Source of the DNA: Prorocentrum cordatum
Lineage: Eukaryota
Assembly: GCA_963575745.1 (NCBI GenBank)
Contig: CAUYUJ010000240.1
Coordinates: 62,001-116,458, forward strand
Direction: 5' to 3'
Length of the DNA stretch: 54,458 bases
In this document: one piece after another, positions 14,000 to 42,522 of the stretch
Layout of the letters: each line of letters begins with the position of its first letter
Numbering within the stretch: position 1 is the stretch's first letter
Notes under the pieces: model-generated
The model's database searches: none
Seen by the model: the letters and a program-made list of their open reading frames with translations, nothing else
Told to the model about the DNA's origin: nothing
Program-made: the position numbers and the translations under genes

Positions 14000-14040
<41 letters not shown>

Positions 14041-15133: not shown

Positions 15134-15167
<34 letters not shown>

Positions 15168-15323
15168 CATACATACCTACGTACGTACGTACGTACATAC
15201 ATATATACATACACACATACATGCATACATACATACATACATACATACATACATACATACACACACATACCTACATACATACATGCATGCATACATACAT
15301 GCATGCATACACACATACATACA

Positions 15324-15357
<34 letters not shown>

Positions 15358-15640
15358 CATACATACATACATACATACATGCATGCATGCATGCATACAT
15401 ACATACATACATACATACGCACACAGACAAACTCATGTAGAGACAGTTACACACATACAGTCAAACATGCATACAAACGAACCACCATTGGTACGTACAC
15501 ACATGCGCACACCAATACACATACATGTATACACCTACAACTATTCATGCACGCATCAATACATGCATGCATACATACCTGCGCACATACAACGACATGC
15601 ATACCTACACTCATACATACATGCAAATATACATACATGC
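14928..15640. repeat. (CATA)n microsatellite
   Basis: ~700 bp of CATA/CATG tetramers. Confidence 0.95.
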
Positions 15641-22380: not shown

Positions 22381-22665
22381 AGTCGAAAACGCACTGGTAA
22401 GCCATGATATATGTTCCGCCTTAGGCGCTCCCATATCCCAGGCTTTGGCTCATATCGCATGAGCAAGAGAGCAAGACGAAGCATGGGATCTGGAGTAAAG
22501 GATAGAAGGGGCATCGTCAATGGAAAAGGTATTTTCCGATCTCAGATACAAGTAGTGCGCCTCAATGAGGCACAATCACATATTAGGCCGGGCCCGGCTT
22601 GAGCCAGGCACGGCAGCGGTGCATGCTCGATATACATCTCGCCTTTAACCCTCTCCGTTTAAAGT
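22381..22665 (-). repeat. 3' LTR
   Basis: Identical to 40414-40698 except T22405 versus A40438. Confidence 0.95.
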
Positions 22666-22769
22666 TGGAGGGGGAGGAGACGAGCAAGCACCGCACTTCT
22701 TCATTACGCGGAAAAACAGTGCTAGGCAACAGCGGCTGCCTACAAGGTAAGGGCGCGCGAGTAGCCTCG

Positions 22770-24650
22770 CTACCGGCGAGTTTCCTCGCTACTAGAGCGC
22801 ACCTGCATGCGGGTTTCCCCGCTAGCTCGGGAGGCAGGGCCGTCCTGAGACGACCTGCCCGCCCTATACGGAGTATGTTTCTTCAGCTCGTGCTTGAAGG
22901 ATTGCTGGCCGGCCATTACCTGTAGGAGCAACGCGCGGTCAATACTACCTTTGGTATGACCATCGGCAGTCATATCCCGCGTGTCACACCATTGGACGCT
23001 TTCAACGATTCCGCGCTCCATCATCTGGCGGATCCAGCTAATGTGCCCAAGCAGAGTGCATTCTGTGGGCTTCTTCAGATCTTTGCTAGACAAAGACTTG
23101 AAGACAGACTCGGCATCAATAGTCAGAGTGACTTTGATACATAGACCACCCATTTCCAATATGTTCTTTAACTGTGTGGGGGTCAATGGTCCCGAGTGTA
23201 GCTCGTGGAGCGTTACAATGGTCGGGTAGCAGTCTTCCAAGTTGTGGGCTGCTGCCAGTGTTTCCGCAGAGTAGCTCGAACGCACCTGCAGTCGATGAGA
23301 CTTGCAGTATGCGTCCACCAGGTGCACGACGGGTTTCCCCGCTTGCGTGTGGCCACGCCTCAGCAGGTTAGCCCCGCGGATACCGTAGCCTTTGACTTCG
23401 TCGTCTTCATCTCCGTTGAGACGACGATAGCCAGAATCGCTATGCAGGTCGACCTCTCCTGTTGGAGTCATAGCTTGATACACGATCTTCTTCGGACCTG
23501 CCTGCAATTTACTGGTAACCGCGTTTAGTCGTCGTACCTGGATGTTTGTCGGTTCCTGGATACGTTGTAGTGAGACGACATAGACCATCAGCCATACCTG
23601 CGTGATCAACGCATAGGCTAGAGCGCCACGAAGACTGACGAACATATCAGAAATCGTCTTTGTCGCTTTGCTCTCAGGATCAGCGCCTGTGAGTTCTGGA
23701 TGTGTGATAGGACGAAGCTGTTTGATGTATTCGTCCTGATCAAGAGTGACGCTCCCATCATCGGTCTTGTTGTACCGAACGGCACAGTTTGTGTATGTGT
23801 GCTTGTTCAGTTTGCACTTTCCAAACGTATCTTCAACACACTTGACATACTTGTCAATAGAATCTTCCTTCCCAGTCATATTGATGTCATCAACGTGTTT
23901 GGCTGTCAAGAGGTTTGAGCTCATCTCGAACTCTTCGTCGTATGAAGTAGGCTGTAGTCCAAAGCTCCTAGTGATGGACCTGAGCTTCAACGAGAATGCC
24001 CTGGGAGCATCCTTCGTGCCCGTCCCCGGCTTCAGACACCGAAGACAGTGCTTTGATTCGACGTATGACTCAAAGCCTGGCAGTGTGCGAAGGACAGCTG
24101 CTGATCCAGGAGGTAGTGTGAAGCACACCACACGCTCTTTCTCGCCCGTTGCCGCGGCGAGCTCGCTATAGGTCAGTCCCTTCAAGAAAGCCATGTTGAT
24201 GTCCAGGGAAGCGATGATCCAAGCTTTGTTGCACGCAGCAGAACTTGCGAGCAGTCTCTGGTTTGACCTCCTTGCCGTGCCAGAGAAGGTTTCGACATCG
24301 AAGGCTTCAATGTCCATGAAGCCACGGAGTACCAAGCGTAACCTGATCGTCCGTTCCATTTCGCCCTTCTCGTTCTTGACAAACTTCCATTTGTATACGT
24401 AGCGTGAAGTCATGATGTTCGACGCTTTGCTCAAGTCAGTCATCTGGAAGCATTTGTTGTCAAGCCACGTCTTCAATTCTGTGTAAAGGGCTTTGGAAAC
24501 TTTGACCGGATGCGCTTGAATGTCGGCCTTCGTGAGTAGATCGTCTTCCTTGACGACCACGGCACGTTTGGAGGCAGCGCTAACATATACTCGCATAGTT
24601 GTGACGCTGCTGTCATCCAACAATCGGCGTTGCTGCTCGGATAACGACTT
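22770..24650 (-). CDS. Copia-type reverse transcriptase + RNase H (3' segment of polyprotein)
   Basis: SRYVYKWK, RLVLRGFMD, LDINMAFLKG, KPGTGTKDAPRAF, HVDD; RNase H SDSGY, SSYSAET, IDAESV, MTADGHTKG. Confidence 0.93.
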   Translation of the reverse strand, partial: KSLSEQQRRLLDDSSVTTMRVYVSAASKRAVVVKEDDLLTKADIQAHPVKVSKALYTELKTWLDNKCFQMTDLSKASNIMTSRYVYKWKFVKNEKGEMERTIRLRLVLRGFMDIEAFDVETFSGTARRSNQRLLASSAACNKAWIIASLDINMAFLKGLTYSELAAATGEKERVVCFTLPPGSAAVLRTLPGFESYVESKHCLRCLKPGTGTKDAPRAFSLKLRSITRSFGLQPTSYDEEFEMSSNLLTAKHVDDINMTGKEDSIDKYVKCVEDTFGKCKLNKHTYTNCAVRYNKTDDGSVTLDQDEYIKQLRPITHPELTGADPESKATKTISDMFVSLRGALAYALITQVWLMVYVVSLQRIQEPTNIQVRRLNAVTSKLQAGPKKIVYQAMTPTGEVDLHSDSGYRRLNGDEDDEVKGYGIRGANLLRRGHTQAGKPVVHLVDAYCKSHRLQVRSSYSAETLAAAHNLEDCYPTIVTLHELHSGPLTPTQLKNILEMGGLCIKVTLTIDAESVFKSLSSKDLKKPTECTLLGHISWIRQMMERGIVESVQWCDTRDMTADGHTKGSIDRALLLQVMAGQQSFKHELKKHTPYRAGRSSQDGPASRASGETRMQVRSSSEETRR

Positions 24651-25986
24651 TGGACATGTCTGCTGTGAAGCAAAGCTCGATGTACTTCCCGTGCTCGTCG
24701 GAGTCCAGATCATATTGGCTGTCCGGAACCGTGGAGCACAAAGGAACGTAGTAAGCAGTGTCCATGTCGTATCCTGGCGGGTGACCCCGCACCGGCAAGT
24801 GGCCTTGCACATCTTCACAGGTCGTAGAGACCAACACGCACTGTGAGTCTGTCATGTATGTCGGAACTGTATGCATGACTTCTTCTGTGTCAGCTTCAAG
24901 GAGTGTTCTGTCATCCATCAGTTCAGCATACCACGACTTCAAGACAAAGGCATCCAGATCTTCTTCTGTTTCCTCTATGATGGTCGGGAGCCGACCATCA
25001 TTCTCCGCAGGAGGCTGCTCAGGAGCAGCTGCTGGAGGTGACTCGCTTGGTGGTGGGCCATCAGCGAGTGCCTCAAACTTAGTGAGGTCTCGGTCGAATC
25101 CAGCAGGCGGCTTCTTGGATTTAAGACACTGGATGATGCGTGAGTGTGTAGATCCTGTGATGTCGTAGATGTTCAAGGCAGCGCCATCAGCTTCATAATA
25201 ATGAAAGCCAGGGGTCACATCATTATCATAGTGCACTAGTGTACAGCTGTCTGCATAAGGTGCAGCAGGCAACTTCGTCAGGCTCTTAGCAAGTCGTACA
25301 GCAACAACGTTTTCAATGCGAAAATAGTTGCGAATGAGATACTGAAGAGCCAAGTGCACCTTAGGCGAAAGCCGGCTCGCAGCAGTCATCTGCAGCCGGC
25401 CCTGTTTCGCTGGTAGATATCCGAAAGTCATGGCGGGTTTCCCCGCTGGCAGACCGGCAATAAAGGCCAATACTGTCCGAAGGGCCGTATTGTCCGATCC
25501 TATCTCGCGGACCATCAGTGCTTCGATGTACAGCGTATGTCGTGTGTCAGGATACTGTACTCGCACTTCGCGACTGCCGACCTTCACGATGACCTGACCT
25601 CGGTCAGGTTCGTTGCGGATGACCGGGTATGGACCACTCCATCCACCCCAGTCGTCTTTCGTGGTGGTCGGGCGATGATAGTCCACGAGATCTCCCTCTT
25701 TGTAGTGAAATTCACCCGTAGCAGTAGTCTTCGTACGGAGAGCCCTGTTCGTCTTGGCAACCGCAGTGGCCTGCGTGATTGCCTCCAGACTAACCCTCCT
25801 GATTGTTTCCTCCCTTGAGTGATCTGATGATTCAGCGGACTGATCATGATCCAAGACAGGGAAATCGGGAAGCATAGCTGGTTGTCTGCCATACAGCGCA
25901 TTATACGGAGAAACTTCGTTGTAGAAGGTAAATGCGTTGCTGGCAAACAAGGCTTCATGTAAAAGACGAATGAAATTCATAGGAAT
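24650..25986 (-). CDS. Integrase C-terminal region and linker (polyprotein segment)
   Basis: ASNAF...SPYNALYGRQP and GDLVDYHR...WSGPYPV are typical post-core integrase motifs; joins the upstream core in frame once the insertion is removed. Confidence 0.8.
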
Positions 25987-27925
25987 CCGCCGACCCTGTC
26001 GGCGTGTGTGAGGGGCTTGTCCGTTCGAGCCGTCATCTCCGTCATTCTTTGTACTCGTCGTCTCTGTCCTTCCCTTTCCCTGGGAGACCTCTTCCCCTGG
26101 GCCCCAGCCAAGCCGACCTTGAGCAACCTCGTAATTGAGTCGAAGGGAAGCCCCTTCCCTTTGATCCCTCCCCCGCCGGGAGGGGGGGGGGTGCAGCGAC
26201 CCCCCCCCCCCCGGGTCAGATACGACGCCCCCCCCTGGGACTCCTTTTCCCCTGGGCTCCAGCCAAGCCGACCTTGAGCAACCCCTGGGCTCCAGCCAAG
26301 CCGACCTTGAGCAACCTCGTAAGTGAGTCGAAGGGAAGCCCCTTCCCTTTGATCCCTCCCCCGCCGGGAGGGGGGGGGGGGGTGTCGACCCCCCCCCCGG
26401 GTCAGATGCGACGCCCCCCCCTGGGACTCCTCTTCCCCTGGGCTCCAGCCAAGCCGACCTTGAGCAACCTCGTAATTGAGTCGAAGGGAAGCCCCTTCCC
26501 TTTGATCCCTCCCCCGCCGGGAGGGGGGGGGGGGTGTCGACCCCCCCCCCGGGTCAGATACGACGCCCCCCCCTGGGACTCCTCTTCCCCTGGGCTCCAG
26601 CCAAGCCGACCTTGAGCAAATTGAGTCCTCGTAATTGAGTCGGGCTCCAAGGGAAGCCCCTTTCCCTTTGATCCCTCCCCCGCCGGGAGGGGGGGGGGGT
26701 AGCGACCCCCCCCCGGGTCAGATACGACGCCCCCCCCTGGGACTCCTCTTCCCCTGGGCTCCAGCCAAGCCGACCTTGAGCAACCTCGTAATTGAGTCGA
26801 AGGGAAGCCCCTTCCCTTTGATCCCTCCCCCGCCGGGAGGGGGGGGGGGGTGCGACCCCCCCCCCGGGTCAGATACGACGCCCCCCCCTGGGACTCCTCT
26901 TCCCCTGGGCTCCAGCCAAGCCGACCTTGAGCAACCTCGTAATTGAGTCGAAGGGAAGCCCCTTCCCTTTGATCCCTCCCCCGCCGGGAGGGGGGGGGGT
27001 GTCGACCCCCCCCCCGGGTCAGATACGACGCCCCCCCTGGGAAGCCAAGCCGACCTTGAGCGAATTGTCGAAGCCGGAAGCCCCCTTCCCTTTGATCCCT
27101 CCCCCGCCGGGAGGGGGGGGGGGGTGTCGACCCCCCCCCCGGGTCAGATACGACGCCCCCCCCTGGGACTCCTCTTCCCCTGGGCTCCAGCCAAGCCGAC
27201 CTTGAGCAACCTCGTAATTGAGTCGAAGGGAAGCCCCTTCCCTTTGATCCCTCCCCCGCCGGGAGGGGGGGGGGGGTAGTCGACCCCCCCCCCGGGTCAG
27301 ATACGACGCCCCCCCCTGGGACTCCTCTTCCCCTGGGCTCCAGCCAAGCCGACCTTGAGCAACCTCGTAATTGAGTCGAAGAGGAAGGGAAGCCCCTTCC
27401 CTTTGATCCCTCCCCCGCCGGGAGGGGGGGGGGGTGCGACCCCCCCCCCGGGTCAGATACGACGCCCCCCCCTGGGACTCCTCTTCCCCTGGGCTCCAGC
27501 CAAGCCGACCTTGAGCAACCTCGTAATTGAGTCGAAGGGAAGCCCCTTCCCTTTGATCCCTCCCCCGCCGGGAGGGGGGGGGGGTGTCGACCCCCCCCCC
27601 GGGTCAGATACGACGCCCCCCCCTGGGGGGCTCCAGCCAAGCCGACCTTGAGCAACTCGTAATTGAGTCGAAGGGAAGCCCTGGGCTCCAGCCAAGCCGA
27701 CCTTGAGCAACCTCGTAATTGAGTCGAAGGGAAGCCCCTTCCCTTTGATCCCTCCCCCGCCGGGAGGGGGGGGGGTAGCGACCCCCCCCCCGGGTCAGAT
27801 ACGACGCCCCCCCTTGGGACTCCTCTTCCCCTGGGCTCCAGCCAAGCCGACCTCGAGCAACCTCGTAATCTCTTGCTGCGCATTGCGAACAGGGTCGGCG
27901 GCACCGGCCGTCAGGCCTTCGCAAT
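25987..27925 (+). mobile_element. 1,939-bp non-coding insertion with asymmetric inverted repeats and an internal tandem array
   Basis: CCGCCGACCCTGT (25987-25999) inverted with ACAGGGTCGGCGG (27889-27901), then a 21-nt tail plus AAT; AAT at both junctions; removal restores ...RLNIPMNF. Confidence 0.85.
26090..27870. repeat. ~150-bp tandem repeat, about 12 units including partial ones
   Basis: Unit GGGCTCCAGCCAAGCCGACCTTGAGCAACCTCGTAATTGAGTCGAAGGGAAG...G-run...C-run...GTCAGATACGACG. Confidence 0.95.
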
Positions 27926-28470
27926 ATTCAACCTATTCAATTCTTCTCCCATCACGTGTATGAGGTGTCGCAGGATACCATTCCTAGCTTCGACAGTCGT
28001 GGCGTGTTGGCCACGCGCTCGGATACGAAGCTCTGTTCCCTTGGATTTAAGGATGGCCTTTGCTGTATCGTTATTCAGTGCTCCTTCCCCATCGGAGTAT
28101 AAGATCTTAGCAGGGCCATGTTGCATCCAAGTTGTGCGATAGGCATCGAGAACAGTATGCATAGTCTTATCAGGAATCTCTGTGCCAGCTGCCCAGCGAA
28201 TACAACGGTCGATGATGTGAAAAACAATATGTTCCTGTTTGTAAAAGAAAAGATCACATTCGACTTCCTCGTTGAAACGTCCTGGCAGTGACACAGAAGG
28301 CATCACCGTGTTGCCTGGTTTGTCCCAGGCACGACATTCTCTACACGAGTCGCAAATGCCTTTGATCAGACTCAAACGGGTTTCACCCAGACCAACCTTA
28401 GTTAGAATCATCCGCATTTTTGGTTCCTTGGCATGAAACCATCTCAAGTGGAGCTTGCGGAGTTCTCGCT
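27926..28470 (-). CDS. Integrase HHCC Zn domain and DDE core
   Basis: LHLRWFH...CDSC; ECDLFF, IIDRCIR, YSDGEG, VEARNGILR. Confidence 0.9.
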
Positions 28471-29249
28471 GCACTACAGCTGGGTCAAAGCTGCGCAGGT
28501 TTTGAAGGCTGAGCTGAACGTCGAAGCGAGTCCAATCAGGAAGCCTTGGCCTTGGCCTCGGCTCTGCTTGAGGCTGCGGCGGCGGTGGAGGATCTCCTCC
28601 CTCCATGCGTCCGCGCCTTGCTGCAACTTGTGGCAGTCTGCGGTGATCGTCAGAGCTACCAGCGCCAGTGGTGTTACCATGAGCCCCTTCGGCCCTGGTG
28701 ATGTCATGGCTGCTGGCGCCTGCGGTTGGATCTCCCTCACCGGGCCGTGGCGGCCTAGGCGCGCGTATGCGCGCTTTCGCGGCCGGCGCCGCTTTTGCGG
28801 CTGGCGCCGCTTTTGCGGCTGGAGCCGCTTCCGCGGCTGGCGCCGCAGGAGCGGCTTGCCCCGCTGGGCGCGGCTGACCAAAGTTATCTGGCAGCTTCCA
28901 TTTTTCGGCGAATCTACATTGGCCAGATATCTTGGTATGGTGAGGATTGCTCCTCTGATATTCCTTCTTACAGCTTGGACAGTCCCAATAGTATGGTTCA
29001 ACATCATACCATCGACACATCTTCGGATCCCTGCTGGGTCTTGGTGATTGTTTGTAGTTGTTGTCTACACAGCCAGGACGCCCAAGACCGCCAGGTGGTG
29101 GTCGCCGGATTTCTCCGTTTGGGTGTCTCTGGATTGTTGGGTCGTCCAAGTCGTAGCCAGCACTGTTTGTTACGAACGCGTAACTGCGTTCGCGATTCGC
29201 GAATGGATCGCGACCGTAGGCAAACAGATCTTTGGCGATTTGCACCGCA

Positions 29250-29870
29250 TCAACGATCAATGACTGCATTCTGTAGGTATACTGCGCCGCCCTTGCTTGT
29301 TCTTTGTTGCAAGCATTGGCGTGCACATGATTACCTGGACAACGCTTGCCTCTAAAAGGTGCCAACAACTCTTCTTTGTTTCCCATCATCTGTGTTGGCT
29401 TGCGAATGTATTGTCCAAACGAATCTTTGAGACCCGTCGTGCATTGATCCATAATCGTTTGGCAAGTGACCTTGCGTTGTGCCAGTTCCTTCCACGGCTG
29501 GATCTCGTCCACCCACGTGCCCATTGGTAGTTCCCTGAGAAAGAAACGTCTTAGGTCGTCTTGTAATAGAGCGACTGTTCCGCAGAACGTGATATGAGGC
29601 AGGTCCTCTTTGTGGTGTTTAAGCCACGTATCATGATTGACCTGTGCATTGAAGTAGGAAGGAAGTCCAGTAGTTCTGCAGCTTGGCTGCAAAATCGTGA
29701 TCTTGGCAAAGCAAGTCTTGAGGTAGTGAAGGACTGCCCTTTGTACTTCCGAGTTTCCGAGGTCAACCATAGATATCTTATCAAGGTTCCCGCCCGACGA
29801 GAGTCCCCTCTTGAAGGCTAATATGGATATACCACCCTTGCCCCCACATAATTCAAGCATGTCCACTTGA
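29250..29870 (-). CDS. C5 cytosine methyltransferase-like domain
   Basis: Motif I-like ELCGGKGG, IV-like QPSC, VI-like LRELP, VIII-like DQCTTG...RKPT, then C..H.H and X-like AAQYT. Confidence 0.7.
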
Positions 29871-30639
29871 TTGTTTCTGCCGTAGCATAGTGACTGGACC
29901 ATCGAGAAGACATCAGCATGTGAGTCAGCGGGTTGCCCCGCCGGTAACATCATGAAAATGTCCTCTGATTCGCTGTCCGAGTCCGAGTCATCCAGAGGAA
30001 CGTCGTTGAAATATGTGGAGCAGTCAAGCCCTTTGAGGTCCTCTCCACAGTCGTCGTTACCGTTTTCTACTTTCTTCTGGATTTTCTTCGGTTTGATGCC
30101 GGCCTCTTTGTCAGCTTTCTGCTTTTCTTTCTGTTTTATCCTGGCATCAGTGGGCAGCGCAGTTTCCGCGGAGAGATCCGCTGCGGAGGGATCCGCTGCG
30201 GAAGGATCCGCTGTTAAGTCAGGAAATGCGAATTTCAGGAAAGTTGGTGGGTCGCGTTTGGCAACGCTCAATCGAAGGGGGAGGAGACCGATCGTCATCG
30301 ACGATCGTCACGCGCTTTGGGCGTGGCCTTCGCGACTCACCGTCGCCGTGAAGAACTGGAGCCGGAGGCTCCCAGTATAACCGAGTACTGATGTTTGTAA
30401 CCCCATCAGGTAATGGAGCTACATAATTGTACCCAGTCGGCTGATCCTGGATTTTGATATCTTGAACGATCTTATTCGTGTCCAGGTCGGTCGTGACTCT
30501 ACGAACAACATGGTCCCATTGAGGGCCCTTTTGTGGGCATTGAACGTAGTGTCTTACCTTTTTGTCAACGCGCGTACACACACTGAGGTGCACCGCACTC
30601 CGCTCATTCCTAATCATGTTGGCTTTATTGAGTTGATCA

Positions 30640-31115
30640 AGGAAGCGTGCAGTGATGATAGGCAAGGTTTTATGCCGGAACTCGGCACGTTGCTGATCTT
30701 GGCCGTACCAATCCAAATCATGTTCTTTGTGTGAGCCACAAGTACATCTCCATAAGTTTATCGGTATATGAGGGCAAGATGTAGCAACTTGTATATAAGA
30801 ACCACTGGGATAGTTACTGGAGCGGTCAAACTTGATACCGAAATGACAGAGTCCCATTCGTATAATGCTTGACTTCAAATCTTCGATAACATCTTTGATG
30901 GGACCCTGTTTCCAGAAATGCCCGGGTGGCCCCAGGATAACAATCTGCATTCTCAGAGCACGCGCTTTGATCAGGAGATTTTGTATACGTTGATAGTGTG
31001 GTCCCGCCCTCTTTCCTGGAGTACGAACGTACCAATCAGAGGGTGTGGCCACCCACAACATATTATAGTCTCCTGCCAACAAATTTCCCAAATACTGTGT
31101 TCCAGTTGAAGTCAT
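30640..31115 (-). CDS. Second, degenerate MTase-like domain
   Basis: LWVATP, ILGPP..FW, GLCHFG and CTC..H parallel the downstream domain, but the catalytic Cys and Glu are missing. Confidence 0.4.
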
Positions 31116-31929
31116 TACCTCATTATGGGTAATCCGGTCACATATATAGCCACGGGTTCGGAGTTCAGCGCAAGCTGTGCGAATATCTTCGATGACAAGA
31201 CATTTTGAATGATATTTTTCCTCTCGGGCCTCAGCGCGGCCAACGCATGTAGCGAGGAGGCCGGCATTCGGCTTCTCTTCGCAAGCGAGCGCCGCCAGCG
31301 CGCCCGCCTGCCCCCGTCAGCGGCGGTGTGAGACCCAGTTGCCGCTTGGCTCGGAGGCATGCTGTTAGCGGATGGCTCCGCAGGAGTCGCTGGTGTGGCC
31401 ACGCTCGCAGACAGAATCGGCGGATTGTTTTCGGAAATGTCACAATATTCCGTCCGATCCGTAGCGTGACCCACGATCTCCACGCGGGTTGGCCCCGCAG
31501 AGTCCGACGAACCTCCGCCCGTGTAGCTTGGTGGCGGTGGCGGCGACGCGGGTGGCCCCGCTGGATCCTCAGGCGCCCATTTGCTCACCGCCTCCTGGAC
31601 TGCCCAGAAGATCTTGGACTTCAGGGCAGCCTTCATGCGTGGCCCAGTCCCTTCGGGGCCCTGTCGGCACTCCCACCAGCTGTTCAGCGTCCTGTTCACG
31701 ATCAAACGGGTCGTGTCCTCCAGGAGCTGCTTGTCGATGTACGGCTCGACGATGTACGTATCGGTCGTGAAGGTCGCGGACTGTCCCGTCGCGGGTGGCC
31801 CCGCTGTTGCTTCAGCGGGTGGCCCCGCACTGACGGGGTCCTCTTCGTTCTCCGTCTCGGTGTAGCCATCTCGGCTGCTGCGGATCGTGAAGGTGTTCGT
31901 GACCGTGTGGCTCTTGGCCCCATCGTACA

Positions 31930-32380
31930 ACCCGCAGGGAATCGCGAGATGTCCCGAGGGAGTCTTCTTCGCCTTCAGGACCTTGGCGCCTCTTCCCAGC
32001 TTCAGGGTGTAGTCACCGCTGGGGAAGATGACCTTCTGGTAGCCCGGCTTCAACACGATGATCGTATCACGTGCCTCCATGGCTCCTAGGCCCCAGATGG
32101 CCGGGAGATTGGCACCCGAGCCTTCTGCGATGTTGGAGGCATACTCCTCAATACGGGGGCTCGCCTCGTTGGCATACTGTACCCCGATCTTGAAGTTGCC
32201 CATCTTCCGACATATCGCAGCGCCCTCCCCAACACCATTGATGTAGAGGGTCTTGCTCAGGGTGCAGATGGCAGGTCGGTAGTTGAACCTGGCCATTATC
32301 TCCTGGAAGGTCCGCGCCGTGTTGGATCCAATGATGTTCACATTAGAACCAATGTCCAGCATGAACGAGATACAGGGCAT
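31930..32380 (-). CDS. Retropepsin-like aspartic protease
   Basis: FMLDIGSNVNIIG, INGVGEG, LPAIWGL, TPSGHLAIP. Confidence 0.8.
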
Positions 32381-33189
32381 ACCATCTTCATCAGGAAAGA
32401 ATGTCCCATTGCGCGCTGCAAGAGCGACCTGTACGCCAGTGTGGTCGTTGGTGTGGTACGTGATCTGCGATCCGAGTGTACCCCTCAACAGGCGCTGTTC
32501 AAGAACCCATTGACTCATGGTCAGCTCGGTGCACCACATCTGCTCGTACTGGCGGCGCTCCTCCACAGTAATCGGTTCCTGCTGGAGGACCCAATAGTTT
32601 GCAGATAGCGTGGACATCCATTCGCCTCCTGGTGGCAGCGTGTCAGTATCGTCACGCGCGTAGGTCAGCCCCTCTGTGTCAATCATGAACGTGGAATGAA
32701 ACTGGGCTGCCTCTGCGCTCTCAGCGCTTGCCCGGCTTCTGGCGCTGACCGGGCTTGCCACTCGAGAGGTCCTGGTTGATCCAGTTGGCCTCCGAATCCC
32801 GCCTCCGCTCCTGCCACTCCGCCTGATGTTGGCCTCCATGGCCCTCAAGAAACCTGGGTTTGGAGGTCCGTTTGCGGGTGGCCCCGCTTGGGCGGCGGGA
32901 GCCGCTTCAGCGGGTGGCCCCGCAGCTGGGGGCTCCTGCGCTCGGAGCGTGGACAGGATCGGCATCTGAATGCCTTGCTCTGGCGCTGGCCAGGGGTATG
33001 CCTGTGCAGCTGGGGCACGTGCGGATGGCTCCGCCGATAGAGCGACTCGAGCCTCCAGTGCCTCCACTGCTTCGCGTAACCGACGCATTTCTCGGGCATC
33101 TGCAACGTGCCTTTCCTGCTGGCGCGCTTGGTCCGACTCAGCGTCGCGCTGTCCAGCATACGGGAAGTGTGCTATCACTATGCCCGGTC

Positions 33190-33350
33190 CACGGCATACG
33201 GCACAGGGGGCCTCATTCGGCGCACCTGGCCGCTGATTGCGGACGTGCTGCTGTGCAACACGGTCCCAGCATATGTCGTGAAAGAAGTGCCCGCACGCCA
33301 GTCTCCACACTGTAGTGCCCATCTCGTAGTTGTCCATGCAGATTGGGCAC
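33190..33350 (-). CDS. RING-H2 zinc finger
   Basis: CPIC-x14-CGH-x2-H-x2-C-W-x20-CAVC. Confidence 0.85.
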
Positions 33351-34989
33351 TGAGCGAAGTTGTAGTCTGAAAATTTCTGGAGCAGGCGCGTCAGGGCGAG
33401 TCCGAGCTTGGCGCTCGAAAGTGGTTTCGCCCTCCCGATATGGCGTCGGTGGCGGCCGTCTGTCTGGCCGTTCAGCGGGTGGCCCCGCTTCTGCGGGTGT
33501 CCCCGCTTGGGCCTCGCGCTCAATCCTTCTCTGGATCGCGCGTTGTTGGCGCAGCCTGGTGTTGTCACGAGCCTGCTGCCTGGATGCCAGTATCGCTTGC
33601 TGCGTGTTGTGCACGTCGCGGATGCAGTCTGGCACGCTGCCCATAGCGGCTGGCACCGCGAGACCAGCTGGCTGTACTATGGTCTCGGGGTCCGTCGGCG
33701 TGGGCATGTAGGCGTAGTGCGGCATAGACTGCGCATCGACCGCTCGTGTAAACTGCAAACGAAACATCTCATTAGCTAGGTTCCGAGTGTATTCGTTCGC
33801 AGGTGGCCCCGCAATCATAGGAGTGTTATTCATCTGCGCGTAGTACTCCGGGTACATCGGCGCGTCCATGGCCTGCGCCTCTGCTGGACCGTGATTGTCC
33901 CATCCATATATCGGGTGTGATGCTATTCCTGGAATAAACACCTGTCGATATGGATTCGTGGGATCAGCATTTGGAGCATCTTCAGAAGTCCAACTCCAGA
34001 GAGGTCGAAAGTCGCCATGATTCGTAACATCTATGTTGCGGTTCCGCAACAGGCTGGGCACTCTATCAGCTTGTTGCTGCAGAAAAGTAGCCTGTGCTCT
34101 TAAGTTGGCTGCCCGACGTTCGTAGTCTGAACCTTGCTGTCCGTCAGCGGGTGGCCCCGCTTGAGCGGGTGGCTCCGCAGGCGTTCGCTCGGCGGGTGAC
34201 CCCGCAGCCACTCCTCCTTCACTACCCCTCGGAGTGCCAAAGGGAGTGGTTGCTTGGAGTGCTGCCGCGAGTGCTGGATTTCCGCGAATCGCCTGGAGTC
34301 TTTGCCACAAGCTGTTCTCGCTCGTTTCAGACGGCGGAGTCCGGAACGGCGAGCCACCATCTGGAGCCGCCCATAGGGACAAACCTCGCACCTCCAGCCT
34401 GCTGCGGAGGGCGTTGTGGCTGTGGTCCTAGGGCGCCTGGTGGCCCCGCAGGAGTGCGCAGGTTCCTCTGCTGTGCGTCTTGGATACCTGTATGCACTGC
34501 CCACGGGCCAGCACGATATAGCTGATCGGTCAGTCCAGAAACGTCGGCTGGTGACAGGTAGCTGTTGAGGGCCTGGACCCACGTCTGCTGGTCCGGCCTC
34601 CAAGGAGATGCTACCGCGGCTACTGGTGCGACCACTTGCTGCCATGAACCATCCGAGGTGTCTGCCGCGGGTGTCCCCGCACCTGCGGGTGGCCCCGCCT
34701 CAGGCATGACCTCGTCTTCCTGGGCATTTATCATGAGGACTGTCTGTGTGAGGTACGGTCGTGGAGCAACATCTTGCTCGGTCATGATCAGGTTGAATGG
34801 GCGACCGCCCGTCTTAGTCCAGCCCTTTAGGTACATGGCGTGATCTTCCATCACACCCAGAGTTCTGTCACATAATTTAAGTGGCAGGTAATCCTCGGTG
34901 CGAATCCTGTCTGCGGGTTGGCCCCGCCTCCGCGATTTGTCATAAGCCAGCGGATTGCTCCAGGCTTCACCGACCCGATATTTTGCAAT

Positions 34990-35740
34990 GCTCACAATCT
35001 GGAGGATATGATCGGGCGGTATGCGGCCGTCGTGGCCCCGTGTCATGACGATGTCATTCGCTGACCTCCATAGAGAAAAGCCGCTGGACAACATCTTGCT
35101 GATGCTGCAGAAGATGAGCACCTCAGAGTCAGGACGGATGCCCGACTGAATCCTCGGGCACCCGGGAGGTAGGGGCAGCCGTGTACGAACTGGCGCCCCC
35201 CCTGCCCCTTAGGGTTGTCCTGTGCGAGGCATGAAAGGCCATTATCAAGGATGCCCTTGACATGTTCCCACTGTGTCCCGTGGATGAAGTATACTGGGTC
35301 ATCTGGTTCCTTCATCCATGTTGTGATCGGCTTATAGAGCGACTCGGGGCAGTGGATGCCTGGGCTGCTATGGCCGTTCGTGGCTCTGATGAAGTATTGT
35401 GGCCTGCGTGCCGTTGGTCGGAATCTGGGAGGTAGCTTCACGCTATCCTCGACGCACTTCATCTGGAGCCTGCCCTTCTGCATGCCATGGTTGTCGATCA
35501 TCTCGCAGCAGTTTAGCAACACCCAATACACGTATGAACAGTGAGGGTTGCCTTTGATCAGCACATCGTGCATGTCCCGGTAGCCTTTCCACTGATCGTT
35601 TTCAGTCCAGTTTGTCAGCAAATCGTCAACAACAACCCAGCCATCGTATGGATCGAAAGTGTTAATCTTTTCGAAGTGTCGGCTGAATCCATCTTTCCAA
35701 TACGGACTATGGCGTAGGGCTGTAGAGAACCATATTGACA
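34990..35740 (-). CDS. Tpt1/KptA RNA:NAD+ 2'-phosphotransferase domain (1-nt frameshift at ~35158)
   Basis: STALRH, DGWV.VDDLL, KGRLQ, IRATNGHS, IHGT...ILDNGLS, GRQFVH, LPG/PRIQSGIRPDSEVLI, RSANDIVMTRG.DGRIPP, all in Tpt1 order. Confidence 0.88.
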
Positions 35741-36047
35741 CCTTGGTCATTTGCCAATCGCGCGGCAGAGTCGGATCAGTGTAAAACTTCTCCATGACCT
35801 TCATGAGCTCTGCCCTGTGCTGCGCGACGCGCAATGGCGGCCTGTCCCGCAACATATTTCCCACGGCTTGTTGTTCACGTTCCCAATCGTTACGGCACTC
35901 GAAGTTACGGCGATCAGGGCAGTTAATGACCTCGTATCGATCTGCATCATCTCGAGTGACTCGTGGGTTTATGGTGCGTCTCGGGCCATTGCCTTCAATG
36001 CCTTGCCAATATTCAATGGCTCCCAGAGGGATGTTCGTGAGAACAGA

Positions 36048-39000
36048 CTACGCTGGTTGCCGACGCGCGGGCGGCCCCGCTGCTGCAGCTGGCGCCGCTT
36101 TAGCGGGTGGCCCCGCAGAGCCTGCGGCTGCCGAGGCAGCTCCAGCGGATGACCCCGCGCCAGGGTGCGGGTGACCTTGGTCAGCCACCGCATCGTCGGC
36201 TAGTTTCTGTCGGTCGCCAAATTCTTTGAGGGCTCTGAAGCGTTCTTCTCTTGAGAGAGCGCCTTCTGCGGGCGTCCCCGCTGCTGCAGCTGGCGCCGCT
36301 TTAGCGGGTGGCCCCGCAGAGCCCTTGTCCTCCTTAGCTTTGGCGGCTGCCTCTGCCCGCACCGACCTCATCCCAGCCTCGGGCTTCGGCTGTGCATTCA
36401 TTCGTGCCGAGCCTGGTCGTGGTGCAAGGCGCGGCTGATGCAGAGTTGGAGTCCAGTCACCTCGGAAGGCTGCCTTAGGCTGGTCGCGAACTTCGTCCTT
36501 GACATCGCCTTGGGCAGCCGGTGGCATCGGGGTTGATGGTCCAGCGAAAGCCTTCCTCCTCTCCGTCACGGACGGGCCGGTAGGCTCTCCCTGCTCAGGG
36601 TCGTCCTTCTTGGCGATCCATCTGGCCTTCGCACGCCCCCGCGTGCCTTCGGGGCTCTTGGAAGGGTACCTCTTCGCAGGAGACGGTGGAGACGAGGAGT
36701 CGGCTTCAGGTCCTGGAGGCGGTCTGCTGCCCTTGCCTGGTTGTGGACCAGGAGGGTCTTTAGGAGGGCCTTCTGGCTGGCCATGATCATGGATGATCTG
36801 CCTCATCTGGTCGATGTCGGCAGCACCTTTTATGGCCAGCTTGTACTTGCCATTTTCGTGGCGATGAATTACCCTCGTGCAAAACCACTTCTGTGCCGAG
36901 GAGCTGTAGTACCAGCAGGCGCATCCATCAGGGAATGGATTCACTGAGCCGTCTTCCGCCGCCCATTCTTCATTCAGTTCGGTTTGGTCAGTACCGGCGG
37001 CGGATCCGGCAGCAGATGCAACAGCTATCCACTCTTCGTCCGCGGACCCAGCGGCTGGCGCCGCGTCTGCGGGTGACCCCGCTTCTCCGCTGGATTCTGC
37101 GGGCGACCCCGCCTCTTTATGGAATCGGCGGTTCCACTCCTTGAGGCGATGGTCATTGGGAAGCTGTTCCCAATTTTCCCTGACAGTGTTAGCAACCTCC
37201 TCGGTCATAGGGACGCGATCGGCTTCAGTGATGCGCTTTCCTCCTCCAGGGACCTTCTTGTTAGGATCATGGACGTTGCCGGCGTCATCTCCATGAGACC
37301 AATTCCAGGGGGTCTCACCGTAATGAGGGCTCCTGGAGGGGCGGTCCATTGGACAGCTGCGCACGTGACCTTTGAAGGGCTCGCATTGACATACTTGTTT
37401 CCTGTATGTCTTGCGATCGTTGATGATCTCCTGTTTCTTAGCCCTTTTGTCCCAAGCCTCTGGCGTTTTAGTCTTGCCACCCTTGGTGCGTATTATCATG
37501 CCAGATTCGTCCCGTTTGGTGCAGTACTCCTTAGAATACCAATGGCGGATCACGCCCATCGAGTAGCCAGGGTACCAATTGATGTACCACTCCGGCACGT
37601 ACTGAGCGGATGCACCTACGGAGTGCTCCGTACTGTATGGGTAGCCAGACGCATCATGTGTAGGGCGTCGTGGAGCTGAACGGCTCCTCCTGCGGGCTGG
37701 CCCCGCTGACGCACTGCCACGTTCCATGGGCCTTTCATCTTCATGACGGTGCTCTGGGTCTCGGGGTGGCGATGGTCGTCTGTTCTTCTTGGCATGGCGC
37801 CTGTCCTCCGAGTCCTCTGAGCTGTCCTGGACCATGAATACGTGCTGATGCGGGCTTCGAAAGTACCCGATGTCGGTTAGCTGCTCCATCGTGAGGTCGT
37901 TGAGGTCCATCTGGTCGCAGCCCTGCATGAATACGTCCATAGACCAAGCGGGTGGCCCCGCTGCTGCGGCTGGCGCCACTTCGGCGGGTGACCCCGCTAG
38001 AACCTGGAGTGCTGTCAGCATCTGAGGTGCCGACATGTCCGAATCCAGGTATGGACGCAGCCTTGCGGCCCCTGGGCGCGACAGCAGGTCGTTCATGGTT
38101 ATCTGCTGATGTGCTGGCGCACTCAGGAGCTGGATCGCTTCTGCGACCTGCTCTTGGAGCATGTCCTTATGGTCCTCTTCGGCCTCTTCAGAGTCAGAAT
38201 AAGCGGGATGGCCCCGCATTTCGTCATCAGCGTCTCCCGCTTCCGAGCCAGCTCGCGGAAGATCTGGCAGCAACGGCATGCCAATCACCTGCGGTGCCAG
38301 CGCGGCGGCGAGCTCCTCCTCGGTCGCCGGGACGGTCTCAGCTTCGGAGATCTCGTCGTCGGCGGGTGGCCCCGCTGGAAGACCGAACCAGGCATTGAAC
38401 GCGACCTCGTCGACTTCGTCCCAGCCGTGGAACTCGTCGAAGAGGGTCACCGCGTACTCTTCCAGGGCTACGGTCACATCAGCGTAGCGGGCCATCACGT
38501 AGTACGTGGAGGAGCCCGCGGCGGCAGCCGCTTCTGGATTGACGTAAAACTCGTAGTCAATGTAGTCTATGTCATCCATAAAAGAGTTTTGAGCCAAATG
38601 TACGGATCCCTTTCCTTTCCCTTTCGGGCAATGATCGCGCAAATGCTCTGTACCACCGCATGTATGACACTTCATAGTATTGCCAGAAGCGCCCCTAGGG
38701 TTGCCCCTCCGCCCTTTTCCCTTACCAGAGGTCCGCCTGTGACCCCGACCTTTGCCTCCGATAAGAACTTCTTCAAAAACTATATCAGTTAAGGGCGTGA
38801 GGAAAGCAGTAATACCCCTACCATGTATACGACGTCTGCGACCCCCTTTGCCACGACCCTTTCCATATCGTTTGAAATGTCGGCGCGCTGCGCGTCTCAC
38901 TTTTCTGACTGGTTTCTTCATAAAGCGCCTCCAACGGCGCTTTGATTTGCGATAAGCCATAAAAGCGGCTTCCGCTCTTTGTTGTTCAGAAAGGTGAGTG

Positions 39001-40547
39001 TCATCAGCTGGATAGTCATTACCAGCAGAGACTATTCCATTGTGCTCATCGTCAGATGAGGTATCTGTGTCAGTGCCAGACTCAAACGGAGAGGGTGGCT
39101 GAGACCCTTGAGCGGATGACTCCGCTTGGCCCCAGAGGGTTGTGCCCGAGGGCGGGCTTGCAGTGTAGGCGGCGCCTGGCGTGTAGTTCGACCAGGCGTT
39201 CGCCTCAGCTGCCTCTGCCGATGCCTGGCCGGTCTGCCCTAAGAAGGCAGTGGCCTCGTTGGGCATATCGGCTGGATCAGCCCAGGGACTTGGCTCGCCA
39301 GGACCAGCGGGTGACCCCGCAGTCGTGGCGTAGACACCTGCATGTGCGTGGTGCCCTGTGAAGATACCCGCAATGTTGCCAGGAGAGCGCTCGGCAACAT
39401 GCCCGTAGTTCCTCATCCTGGTCAGCAGCCTGTCATAGTCTGCTTGTGTTCTGGGCATCTGATGATTAAAGGGCTCCAGCAGGTGTTGGGCTCGTGACGC
39501 GCCAACGTCTAACGCTCTGAAAAGGATCAGCGTTAGGATCTGAAAGTTGGGGATGACAAAGCCAACAGAGTTAGCCTCGTCACGGGCCATCTCGAATCGA
39601 GCTAACGCTGAGTCGATTCGCTCGCCCCTTTCGACGCGAAAGTCGATAAGGGCAGTGCCAGAGTTGAGCTGGCGCTCATCTTCCAGAATTTCAAATTTGG
39701 TGCTCAATAGGTACAGTATATAAGTAACTGCATCCGTTGGCTGTCCGTTGACAGTTACACCATAGTTGATGATCTGGGAGGGGACCTGCATGGCGATACG
39801 ACGAGCAAGGCCTTGAAGGCCACGTTGTAGTGCTGCAGCTTGCTGAGGTGGCGTCATATTGCCGCTCGTTACGTTTATCCATGCATGTACTTCGCGAACG
39901 TACTCGCGAAAGGGCGTAGTACCGGCTGGGTCCCACGAAGGGCCGGTAGTACGCGTGTCGTCCATCCCCTGCCGCATGTAGCCCACAGCACATCCCATTA
40001 TCACCCATAGAATGCCGAAGATAGTTATCTTAATCCAGTGCATGTGCATCTCGGCTTCGGTGATTGGTTTAGGCTGTGGTTTGTCAGGCTCGGGCGTAGT
40101 AGCCGTAAGGCGCCTGACCGGCATGGGATGCAGGTGGCCCCGCTGCGGGTAGCCCCGCAGAGTGACCACGTTCTCGATCGAGTTGCCGATTGGCATCTGG
40201 TGGAAGTCGGGAGTGAAGTAGCGCAGTGAAGTAGGAGAGAGCGTCTCGAGCTCGCGGGTCGCCCCGCTAGCTCGATCGCGGACTGGCTCCGCTCCTCGCA
40301 GAGCCGGCGCAACATGGTATTCCACCGTAGTAGTAGTCCACCAAGTTGTGCCGTGGATTACAGGAATCAGAGCGAGAGCCAGCCACACGAGAGTGTAGCC
40401 AGCTCCGCTACCAAGTCGAAAACGCACTGGTAAGCCAAGATATATGTTCCGCCTTAGGCGCTCCCATATCCCAGGCTTTGGCTCATATCGCATGAGCAAG
40501 AGAGCAAGACGAAGCATGGGATCTGGAGTAAAGGATAGAAGGGGCAT
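36048..40547 (-). CDS. Gag-containing N-terminal polyprotein segment
   Basis: PSWD...FREYVREV..W Gag motif (~39880-39945); KG-rich stretch then CHTCGGTEHLRDHC knuckle (38628-38669); long low-complexity extension. Confidence 0.85.
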   Translation of the reverse strand: MPLLSFTPDPMLRLALLLMRYEPKPGIWERLRRNIYLGLPVRFRLGSGAGYTLVWLALALIPVIHGTTWWTTTTVEYHVAPALRGAEPVRDRASGATRELETLSPTSLRYFTPDFHQMPIGNSIENVVTLRGYPQRGHLHPMPVRRLTATTPEPDKPQPKPITEAEMHMHWIKITIFGILWVIMGCAVGYMRQGMDDTRTTGPSWDPAGTTPFREYVREVHAWINVTSGNMTPPQQAAALQRGLQGLARRIAMQVPSQIINYGVTVNGQPTDAVTYILYLLSTKFEILEDERQLNSGTALIDFRVERGERIDSALARFEMARDEANSVGFVIPNFQILTLILFRALDVGASRAQHLLEPFNHQMPRTQADYDRLLTRMRNYGHVAERSPGNIAGIFTGHHAHAGVYATTAGSPAGPGEPSPWADPADMPNEATAFLGQTGQASAEAAEANAWSNYTPGAAYTASPPSGTTLWGQAESSAQGSQPPSPFESGTDTDTSSDDEHNGIVSAGNDYPADDTHLSEQQRAEAAFMAYRKSKRRWRRFMKKPVRKVRRAARRHFKRYGKGRGKGGRRRRIHGRGITAFLTPLTDIVFEEVLIGGKGRGHRRTSGKGKGRRGNPRGASGNTMKCHTCGGTEHLRDHCPKGKGKGSVHLAQNSFMDDIDYIDYEFYVNPEAAAAAGSSTYYVMARYADVTVALEEYAVTLFDEFHGWDEVDEVAFNAWFGLPAGPPADDEISEAETVPATEEELAAALAPQVIGMPLLPDLPRAGSEAGDADDEMRGHPAYSDSEEAEEDHKDMLQEQVAEAIQLLSAPAHQQITMNDLLSRPGAARLRPYLDSDMSAPQMLTALQVLAGSPAEVAPAAAAGPPAWSMDVFMQGCDQMDLNDLTMEQLTDIGYFRSPHQHVFMVQDSSEDSEDRRHAKKNRRPSPPRDPEHRHEDERPMERGSASAGPARRRSRSAPRRPTHDASGYPYSTEHSVGASAQYVPEWYINWYPGYSMGVIRHWYSKEYCTKRDESGMIIRTKGGKTKTPEAWDKRAKKQEIINDRKTYRKQVCQCEPFKGHVRSCPMDRPSRSPHYGETPWNWSHGDDAGNVHDPNKKVPGGGKRITEADRVPMTEEVANTVRENWEQLPNDHRLKEWNRRFHKEAGSPAESSGEAGSPADAAPAAGSADEEWIAVASAAGSAAGTDQTELNEEWAAEDGSVNPFPDGCACWYYSSSAQKWFCTRVIHRHENGKYKLAIKGAADIDQMRQIIHDHGQPEGPPKDPPGPQPGKGSRPPPGPEADSSSPPSPAKRYPSKSPEGTRGRAKARWIAKKDDPEQGEPTGPSVTERRKAFAGPSTPMPPAAQGDVKDEVRDQPKAAFRGDWTPTLHQPRLAPRPGSARMNAQPKPEAGMRSVRAEAAAKAKEDKGSAGPPAKAAPAAAAGTPAEGALSREERFRALKEFGDRQKLADDAVADQGHPHPGAGSSAGAASAAAGSAGPPAKAAPAAAAGPPARRQPA
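40401..40413 (-). promoter_or_regulatory. Primer-binding site, probably for initiator tRNA-Met
   Basis: TGGTAGCGGAGCT directly abuts the 5' LTR; resembles TGGTAGCAGAG/TGGTATCAGAG iMet-type PBSs. Confidence 0.8.
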
Positions 40548-40698
40548 CGTCAATGGAAAAGGTATTTTCCGATCTCAGATACAAGTAGTGCGCCTCAATG
40601 AGGCACAATCACATATTAGGCCGGGCCCGGCTTGAGCCAGGCACGGCAGCGGTGCATGCTCGATATACATCTCGCCTTTAACCCTCTCCGTTTAAAGT
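40414..40698 (-). repeat. 5' LTR
   Basis: 285-bp direct repeat of 22381-22665. Confidence 0.95.
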
Positions 40699-42522
40699 TC
40701 ACCCCCGTTTCGGCACACTCTTCACACGTTTCGTGGCCCCCCTGGCCCTGCGGTCAGCCGTGCCTGGGCGCATCTGGCGCACCTGGTACGTTTGGCGCAC
40801 ATGGCACGCGTGGCGCGCCTCAACATTGTCCCAACATTGTGTCCCAAAAATGTCCAAAATGGCGCCCGGAGCGTCCCAATGCTGCTCCAAGAGGCATCCA
40901 GGAGGCCCCCCGCGGCACCCAGACTTGCCATTTGGGGATCTGCTTGGACTGACTCCAGCTTCGGTTTGGCTTGATCCAGCGCGAGTTCTGATTAACCCGT
41001 TTCGGTCGAAGCGCGTGTGCTCGGGCTGATCCCGAGCTTCGGCCTGGGAATCGGTTCCGGACGGGCGAGTGACGCGAAGCATCAGCAATTCGAGAGGGGG
41101 GCTGGCGCCACGAGAGAATGGGCTACGAGGGTCTACGCGGGTATCGACCTGCCCCTCGAGAGCAAGGCAGGAGGAGAGGTGGAATGACGAGGGAGGAAAG
41201 ACCTTCTTGGGTCTGTCCGACATGCGCCCGACCGTGTCAAGACGCACGGCTCGACCATGCACTGTAAATCTGACTCTGTTAACACGGCGCGACCGTGCTC
41301 GATTAAACACTGGCGACGAAGACTGGCACGACCAGAGGCTGTGAGGCGTGCATCCTCTGAGCCCACTACTTAGTGCCTGAGCTCGCCCAAGATATTTCCC
41401 AGAGCAAGCCAGGGACGATGCGCGCAGCGCGTGCAAAAACTGACGGCCTGGCAGCTGTGTGCCAAGGAGGCGGGCAATCGAACTCACGATTGCAAGCGCG
41501 TCGCTGCTAGCCTGGCGCAGGCATCTCCAGTCCGGCCGACATGGGAGAAGAGGCTCGGCCGCTGGGAAGAGCGCCCAGCAGATGGCATGCAGGATCAACG
41601 GGCGGGGGCGGTGCGCCCGGCTCCGCCAGGAGATCTGCTGCTACGACCCCTCGTGTTCCCCTTTCTCCTCCTCCTCCTCAAGCTCCTCCTCCTCTTCCCC
41701 CTCCTCCTCCCCCTCCATCCCCTCCTCCTTCTCCGCAAGCCCTGAGTGAATGAGCTCGCCCTTCCCCCCCCCCCCGCCCCCACTTGCTCGTGCCACGCCT
41801 ACTCGGGCCCCCGCCGCTTTGGGCCACGAGCCTGCTCCTCCTCCTCCTCCTCCTCGTCGTCCTTCTCCTCCTCCTCTTCCTCTTACCCCTCCTCGGGCAT
41901 ACTTAACACCATCCCTCCCTCCTTCCACCCTTCCCCACCCGCTCCTCTTCGCTCATTCACATCCTCCTCGCCGCCCTCCTCCTGCTGTTCTTGAGACTGG
42001 GGCCCTCGCATGCATCCCCTGCGCAGGCGGACGGCAAAAGAGGTGTCTTTTTGGCTTCCACAGCTCCCTCCTCCTCGTCTGCACAATGAGTTTCTCCCTT
42101 CGTCACTCCAAGCAGATGCGCGCTGTCTGGAAGCAGAAGTGGAGATAATCTCGGATATACTCAACAAACTATAATGACGGGTTCAGCTCTGGCGCCGGAA
42201 CTACCTGGTATTGGCCCCCTGGTCTGGCACTCCTCAACAATTTCCTGTTTATTCTTCCTCCCCCCTCCTCCTCCTACTCCACATTTTTTCCCTCTCCTCC
42301 TCCTCCGTCATGCATATCTGTCCTCCGTGTTTTCTCCGATGGACCCGAAGAGCAGGCGGATCAGCTGATCGATCACGGGGGCGTGCCCCCCTACCCCCCC
42401 TCTCCTGTGCAAGGACGTCCAACTGTGACCAAACCGTTGGAGGGGCGGCGGGACGAGAGGCAGAAGAGAAAGAGGGGAGGGAGGAAGGGGAGAACGGAGG
42501 GGGGAGGAGGGTGAAAGGGGGG

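Follow-up and report, generated by a model that had tools for sequence, protein, structure and literature searches.

In Prorocentrum cordatum, an RNA 2'-phosphotransferase (Tpt1/KptA) domain is encoded inside an element bounded by long terminal repeats (LTRs), at 34993-35747 on the minus strand of the window, which is the whole stretch of 54,458 nucleotides (nt) of contig CAUYUJ010000240.1 analysed here and to which all coordinates refer. Tpt1 removes internal RNA 2'-phosphates by transfer to nicotinamide adenine dinucleotide (NAD+). Judged from sequence, this is very probably a young Copia-type LTR element with a complete eukaryotic (TRPT1-like) Tpt1 domain that has become fixed and is under selection in the element family. 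This structure, taken together with a role of the enzyme in replication, is considered the best explanation as a whole, and a reasonably probable one. Taken by itself, the proposal that Tpt1 is active as an enzyme and serves the replication of the element itself is a possibility that stops just short of being probable, and the proposal that the element family depends on its own NAD+-dependent Tpt1 for replication is put forward more tentatively still.

The domain is written in two reading frames. In the open reading frame (ORF) 35043-36047(-), in which residue 1 corresponds to the codon 36047-36045, the motifs ALRHSP (amino acids (aa) 110-115; 35703-35720), QKGRLQ (aa 190-195; 35463-35480), IRATNGHS (aa 220-227), IHGTQW (aa 255-260) and GRQFVHG (aa 284-290) follow one another up to YLPG at aa 293-296, the last base of which lies at 35160. 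The other frame, ORF 34327-35208, carries PRIQSGIR (35134-35157), WRSANDI (35050-35070) and GRIPPDHIL (35002-35028), and neither piece holds a stop codon, the frameshift aside. An earlier, sequence-only reading of this DNA had reported an ordered set of Tpt1 motifs with candidates for a tetrad of the form Arg-His-Arg-Arg; all of them are found where it had placed them, on the minus strand. This reading had also proposed a profile hidden Markov model (HMM) search and a structure prediction as checks, and both came out in favour of Tpt1. With the Pfam profile PF01885 (length 177, curated cut-off 26 bits) the first piece scored 35.9 bits (E 1e-08, profile positions 67-124 of 177), which is above the cut-off; the second piece scored 22.5 bits (E 1.3e-4, positions 138-177), which alone is below it. 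In a phmmer search of the PDB the first piece matched the mammalian TRPT1 chain 7yw3_A to residue 165 and the second matched it from residue 157 (E 6.4e-06). Since the alignments run to residue 165 and then from residue 157, the pieces are consecutive parts of a single domain, joined in LPG-D-P.

A family profile built from 14 rows (A4) matched the PDB entries 7yw3 (1.5e-14), 7yw2 (3.4e-12) and 7yw4 (1.9e-10) as well as the bacterial 6ede (0.0067), and the clade reads as closest to eukaryotic TRPT1, yet remote from it. The fold was modelled with AlphaFold for the intact relative P0002 using the family alignment, not for the window's own protein; the model has a mean predicted local distance difference test score (pLDDT) of 65.8 and a predicted template modelling score (pTM) of 0.56, the NAD+ lobe being weakest. 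Here, a Foldseek search against the PDB returned Tpt1/KptA structures at all of ranks 1-21, with a best E of 2.6e-06 and template modelling scores (TM-scores) of 0.34/0.42. The catalytic tetrad of CthTpt1, formed by Arg18, His19, Arg68 and Arg121 (PMC6333775), aligns to R112 and H113 (ALRH), R193 and R285 of the window, the LRH-to-structure alignment lying in a weak, sub-threshold stretch of the A4 match. QKGRLQ (R193) pairs with KQRFALQ of 7yw3 and GRQFVH (R285) with GRTHIH, and HGT, the His-x-Thr motif of the NAD+ site, is present at aa 256-258 of the window ORF. By its motifs and matches, the set is a genuine Tpt1 domain and not a chance assembly of motifs.

The break between the two pieces had been suspected as one missing base near 35158, splitting LPG[D]PRIQSG, and a single-base loss is found at exactly that site. 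For this check and for polymorphism, Logan contigs of four runs were aligned to 33500-37000 of the window, namely X1 (organism A, the best match), X2 (a marine metagenome), X4 (organism B) and X7 (a marine plankton metagenome), and the whole of this interval was covered in 4 of 4 runs. An extra T behind 35158 is carried by the entire depth of the three other runs (X2 34.4/34.4, X4 1636.5/1636.5, X7 15.1/15.1) and by 63.5 of 647.2 in X1. With the added base the minus strand reads LPGDPRIQSG, and the relatives P0002, P0004, P0005 and P0013 are unbroken at this site with LPGD(T/K/P/D)RI(H/L)SG. As a consequence of the break, the NAD+ lobe of the window copy loses the frame for its final ~55 residues. 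At 34363/34364, where the window is one base longer, the base is left out at depths of 746.7/746.7 (X4), 11.8/11.8 (X7), 35.8/45.7 (X2) and 387.3/1461.5 (X1). The two indels, 795 nt apart, cancel; because the second offsets the first, the frame before 35158 is the frame after 34363, and the shift is confined to the stretch between them. Since independent X1 contigs carry the loss, the break is a real variant, unless X1 represents the assembly's own data. Most of the X1 depth shares the break and the two LTRs are near-identical, which suggests that a Tpt1-broken lineage was recently amplified. The broken form would thus be a real, recently amplified variant, presumably served by proteins from intact copies.

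The element itself extends from 22381 to 40699 on the minus strand (18.3 kb), and its LTRs agree in 285 of 286 bases. The LTR termini are not TG...CA, and no purine-rich tract is present 5' of the 3' LTR on the coding strand. Along the minus strand the order is first ORF, Tpt1, conserved region, RING finger, putative protease, integrase-like region, tandem array and RVT_2 reverse transcriptase (RT). The presence of RVT_2 and an integrase-like region 5' of the RT point to the Copia type. The first ORF is a putative Gag, as inferred from its CCHC pattern and its position; the zf-CCHC match in Pfam reaches only E 0.56. The Tpt1 ORF shares the frame of this first ORF, with a single TAG between them. 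The sequence-only reading had placed Tpt1 between Gag and protease of a Copia polyprotein. Of this, the Copia setting stands, given the LTRs, RVT_2 and a CCHC-bearing ORF upstream, whereas the names Gag and protease go by pattern and position only, with no significant Pfam match.

The domain recurs in other copies. Word-indexed searches revealed at least 10 P. cordatum gene models that match the N-terminal half at 66-91% identity. A profile search found 67 proteins, 64 of which are fragments of one EukProt data set, and relatives are also present in several metagenome contigs. When 1.84 billion representatives were searched with the window piece by phmmer, no more than 54 matches reached E <= 0.001, mostly short fragments; among 12 phmmer matches examined, only P0037 and P0052 look like cellular tandem Tpt1 proteins. 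The neighbourhood recurs as well. By tblastn to the window, P0001, P0003 and P0007 carry the Tpt1 N-terminus linked to the protease region (70-99% identity), and P0007, P0008 and P0009 join Tpt1 sequence to first-ORF sequence. Residues 1-263 of P0012 are collinear with 36032-35232, that is, with the N-terminal extension and Tpt1, P0013 crosses the break and reaches 34642 in the downstream region, and aa 224-284 of P0002 correspond to 35175-34993 of the window. P0032 links first-ORF-like sequence to a degenerate Tpt1-like part at ~30% identity, so that even the distant relatives P0012, P0013 and P0032 (30-45% identity) keep the same neighbours. Scans of metagenome contigs and viral contigs for the DNA loci of the relatives gave pattern matches and no confirmed relative. 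In the P. cordatum models P0006-P0010, pieces of the element (first ORF, Tpt1 N-terminus, protease region) are fused with host-like sequence that is unrelated, and one of these models is named protein-tyrosine-phosphatase by UniRef; these five look like annotation chimeras.

The differences between copies bear on selection. The substitution counts rest on the 40 best-supported of 346 single-base differences, a subset chosen by support. Within 34990-35740, synonymous changes make up 12 of 14 (binomial P for third positions 8.2e-05), and across 33500-37000 the same holds for 29 of 40, with 29 of 40 also at third codon positions (binomial P 4.7e-07). Conservation was counted in 118 family rows aligned to the A4 profile, with a median pairwise identity of 49% and a mean top-residue share of 0.63 as background. 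Tetrad conservation, another check that had been proposed, was found to be far above this background (R 35/35, H 28/35, R 61/64, R 46/54), and HGT is retained in 46/66, 62/65 and 52/65 rows. A domain confined to this copy and evolving neutrally would have spoken for a one-off transduction; instead, it is present in many diverged copies with mostly synonymous change. The pattern reads as purifying selection on the domain in the lineages that spawn new copies and as decay in dead copies.

A separate feature of the family rows is that His-to-Arg replacement is strikingly common at conserved histidines, in 7/35, 14/63, 13/66 and 5/51 rows. Its frequency suggests that an A-to-G change recurs in copies or in transcripts.

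Several explanations other than a selected enzyme have to be weighed. A passenger with no role for the element, being a piece of host Tpt1 picked up in a single transduction and carried neutrally, would fit the near-identical LTRs of a frameshifted copy, the share of the break in most X1 depth and the key-residue substitutions in several members. This is nevertheless highly improbable, given 12 of 14 listed domain differences being synonymous, a tetrad well above background among rows of 49% median identity, neighbours on both sides of the domain that stay the same in P0012, P0013 and P0032 (30-45% identity), and a frame that is intact at 35158 in all depth of X2, X4 and X7. Quite improbable, too, is that the break is unreal or not disabling, be it an assembly indel or a site of -1 slippage on C_CCG_GGU leading to LPG-C-PRIQSG. 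Independent X1 contigs share the loss at 583.7 of 647.2 depth, which argues against an assembly error, although the window contains many frame changes, as do error-prone assemblies. At the break the minus strand reads CTC CCG GGT GCC, which formally matches X_XXY_YYZ, but GGG as YYY is not known as an efficient eukaryotic slippery site, and slippage here would leave the other frame changes unexplained. That the indel at 34363/34364 exactly compensates is in line with a break that is unreal or does not disable.

It is also conceivable, albeit unlikely, that the domain was kept and repurposed, either as a winged-helix RNA-binding module or as an ADP-ribosyltransferase acting on host protein or nucleic acid in counter-defence. 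The clade is far from cellular Tpt1, with its 54 hits among 1.84 billion representatives, and conserves the clade-specific motifs CPESL, GLSC, HGCPYLPGD and WRSANDI, which are absent from TRPT1 alignments; furthermore, the RING finger that shares this polyprotein hints at accessory functions directed at the host. On the contrary, the four residues that grip the RNA 2'-PO4 and 3'-PO4 in CthTpt1 (PMC6333775) are the best-conserved positions of the family. Because these phosphate-gripping residues are best conserved, the data fit a phosphate-bearing nucleic-acid substrate, whoever's it is.

A number of observations weigh against a selected Tpt1 enzyme serving the element. Tpt1 is broken in the window copy and 583.7 of 647.2 of the X1 depth shares the missing base; a recent amplification of such a lineage may mean that the domain is dispensable in cis. 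The window copy shifts frame seven times along the element, its coding region is interrupted by a 1.5-kb tandem array, and with seven frame changes it cannot yield one polyprotein as it stands. Gag, protease and integrase are without HMM support in Pfam at E <= 10, beyond the zf-CCHC match at E 0.56. In the P0002 fold the NAD+ lobe is modelled with middling confidence, and the TM-scores of 0.34/0.42 are low. Key residues are replaced in several members: the fourth tetrad residue of P0002 is Ile, P0032 is without the LRH motif, and Arg stands for the tetrad His in 7/35 rows and for the HGT His in 13/66 rows. The synonymous count is limited to 40 of 346 differences, those with the best support. 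The P. cordatum models are chimeric, so that their junctions may be predicted introns and not real structure, and the label of the EukProt set, Pyramimonas sp. CCMP1952 by its source, could not be confirmed. Finally, no RNA run was present among the sequencing runs that match the region.

For a selected enzyme in the replication of the element, the following course can be proposed. Intact copies would produce an active NAD+-dependent Tpt1 as part of the polyprotein, and the target of the enzyme would be a phosphate on some nucleic acid that takes part in retrotransposition. As a first choice, it would take a 2'-phosphate (or a terminal 2'/3'-phosphate) off the primer tRNA or the template RNA, for the RT to use; the second choice would be ADP-ribose capping of 5'-phosphate ends of RNA or complementary DNA (cDNA), as a shield. 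Both reactions have precedents, since some Tpt1 enzymes remove terminal 2'/3'-phosphates (PMC6573784) and some also ADP-ribosylate 5'-phosphate RNA or DNA ends (PMC6182162). Broken copies such as the window copy would then rely on intact ones in trans.

The features of the element are collected in Table 1.

Table 1. Features of the Tpt1-bearing LTR element, given in window positions from the 5' to the 3' end of the coding strand, with the two indels last.
Feature	Position	Strand	Remarks
Target-site duplication GGTG	40700..40703 (upstream copy), 22377-22380 (other)	-	4 bp, read from the flanks
5' LTR	40414..40699	-	286 nt; direct repeat family D11
Primer-binding-site-like TGGTAGCGGAGC	40402..40413	-	TGG start, directly after 5' LTR
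First ORF	36048..40574	-	1508 aa stop to stop; CX2CX4HX4C zinc knuckle at 38628-38669; TAG at 36048-36050
N-terminal extension	35748..36047	-	Directly after the first-ORF TAG, same frame; conserved in P0012 and P0026
Tpt1 domain, first piece	35160..35747	-	PF01885 35.9 bits and PDB alignments; RNA lobe (R112, H113, K191, R193) and most of NAD+ lobe (H256-G-T258, R285)
Tpt1 domain, second piece	34993..35157	-	PF01885 22.5 bits, 7yw3_A E 6.4e-06; PRIQSGIR, WRSANDI, GRIPP; other frame
Conserved region, continues frame after Tpt1	34642..34992	-	Collinear with P0013 (aa 94-258 = 35175-34642)
RING finger	33182..33349	-	PF13639 31.6 bits, PF13923 32.1 bits
Putative aspartic protease region	31925..32404	-	FMLDIGSN (D-I-G-S) motif by eye; 97-99% identical to parts of P0001 and P0007
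Integrase-like region	27914..28510	-	D, D, E pattern by eye and ESM Atlas leads
Tandem array	26249..27737	.	151-153-nt units within coding region
Copia-type RT	23676..24458	-	PF07727 RVT_2 43.7 bits, E 3.3e-11, cut-off 31.6; residues 132-392 of ORF 22770-24851
3' LTR	22381..22666	-	Direct-repeat partner of 5' LTR
Frame break	35158..35159	-	One base of most other copies absent between the positions; Logan contigs and intact relatives
Second indel	34363..34364	-	Window one base longer than most other copies; frame returns to that of 35160-36047

The primer-binding-site-like sequence presumably resembles the complement of the 3' end of initiator tRNA-Met; a tRNA gene search of the window found none. 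For the protease region, the ESM Atlas gave RVP families only as leads at 0.84, its top match being an unrelated bacterial domain of unknown function (DUF). For the integrase-like region, it gave rve (13% of members, score 0.95) and gag_pre-integrs (30%, score 0.91), and this region had no sequence match in the PDB. The N-terminal extension and the region after Tpt1 had no Pfam match at E <= 10. The RING finger is a second unusual accessory domain in the same retrotransposon coding region, and the tandem array, located between the integrase-like part and the RT, is rich in G and C homopolymer runs. A DNA methyltransferase (DNMT) in ORF 27911-30307, suspected on the premise that dinoflagellate Copia elements carry one, was considered and dropped: PMC5890265 says the opposite, and Pfam gave none.

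A 14-nt motif, GCGGGGNCNCCCGC, is present in 22 copies, all on the coding strand and all inside the element (24777-39320), where 0.05 would be expected by chance. It encodes AG[PST]PA and forms nine pairs with a spacing of 18-45 nt, always a multiple of 3, with nearly identical codons each time; sites of the motif include 36067-36116, 36268-36317, 37948-37997, 32874-32923 and 34667-34698. One pair lies just 5' of the first-ORF TAG and another ~100 aa after Tpt1, where P0013 has AGQPA. The AG[PST]PA modules could be linkers, protease-cleavage modules or an in-frame mini-insert, and the identical codons point to a constraint on GCGGGGNCNCCCGC at the nucleic-acid level. Contig ends at 36067 and 36116, taken for a time as variation at the junction of the first ORF and Tpt1, were dropped as such, since they coincide with the GCGGGGNCNCCCGC module and are most likely its copies elsewhere.

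The insertion flanks, 22200-22380 and 40700-40800, are alike (GTTTCGGCACAC...CGTGGCCCC), and because of this resemblance the element appears to have inserted into repeated sequence. Outside the element, low-complexity arrays with 8-12-nt periods are found at 13867-15400 and GGA/GAG-rich runs at 41650-41950, 42846-42954, 44100-44217 and 46818-46991.

Tpt1 is present in all domains of life. Its role beyond fungal and plant tRNA splicing is a longstanding conundrum (PMC6333775), and other reactions of the enzyme have been raised, for example ADP-ribose capping of 5'-phosphates (PMC6182162). Here, a tetrad kept through deep divergence in a reverse-transcribing element points to a substrate in the retrotransposition cycle, which could be the primer tRNA, the genomic RNA or the cDNA ends. 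If the element does need its own Tpt1, this would be the first link of nucleic-acid ADP-ribosylation or 2'-phosphate chemistry with retrotransposition, and it would provide a natural, testable system for Tpt1 function outside tRNA splicing. For transposon biology, the domain represents a new kind of accessory enzyme in LTR polyproteins. For dinoflagellate genomics, the element family is a high-copy source of spurious 'Tpt1' annotations and chimeric gene models, such as those among the P. cordatum proteins.

In the literature searched, which leaves most subscription journals and Repbase outside its scope, no description of Tpt1 in any retrotransposon was found, and an opinion paper on accessory domains in retrotransposon polyproteins makes no mention of Tpt1, KptA, phosphotransferase or ADP-ribosylation. 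This agrees with the sequence-only reading, which knew of no Tpt1 as LTR-retrotransposon cargo; yet Tpt1 is known from other selfish replicators. PTS_2-RNA (Tpt1) domains have been described in the dicistro-like viruses EPlV2 and PVLADV1 (PMC11316551) and KptA homologues in gammabaculoviruses (PMC3230848). As far as these descriptions go, they resemble the window element in that a selfish replicator has a Tpt1 of its own, which in the RNA viruses is part of a polyprotein. They differ in that the domain belongs to an RNA-virus replicase polyprotein or is a gene of a large DNA virus and not part of an LTR element, the comparison being one of descriptions and not of sequences.

Compared with cellular Tpt1/TRPT1/KptA (PDB 7yw2, 7yw3), the domain has the same family membership, the same two-lobe order, the tetrad, HGT and the LPGDP-I-SG-R of mouse and human TRPT1. 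In contrast to these, it is part of a retrotransposon polyprotein and no stand-alone gene, and it is frameshifted in the window; the element clade reaches <=24% identity to the structures and has a conserved N-terminal extension of ~80-100 aa and Cys-containing motifs. In dinoflagellates, Symbiodinium retrotransposons carry a DNMT, while Symbiodinium Copia elements are without a DNMT domain according to PMC5890265. Common to these and the window element is the acquisition of a host enzyme domain by a dinoflagellate retrotransposon; those elements are non-Copia, and the window element has no DNMT by Pfam. Arthropod Copia elements, finally, have captured a methyl-CpG-binding domain (PMC6673714). 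With such Ty1/Copia elements bearing accessory domains, the window element has in common RVT_2, an integrase-like region 5' of the RT, a tRNA-type primer site and a host-derived domain that would be fixed and selected; it is set apart by its unusual length of 18.3 kb, its RING finger and a domain of the NAD+-dependent phosphotransferase/ADP-ribosyltransferase family.

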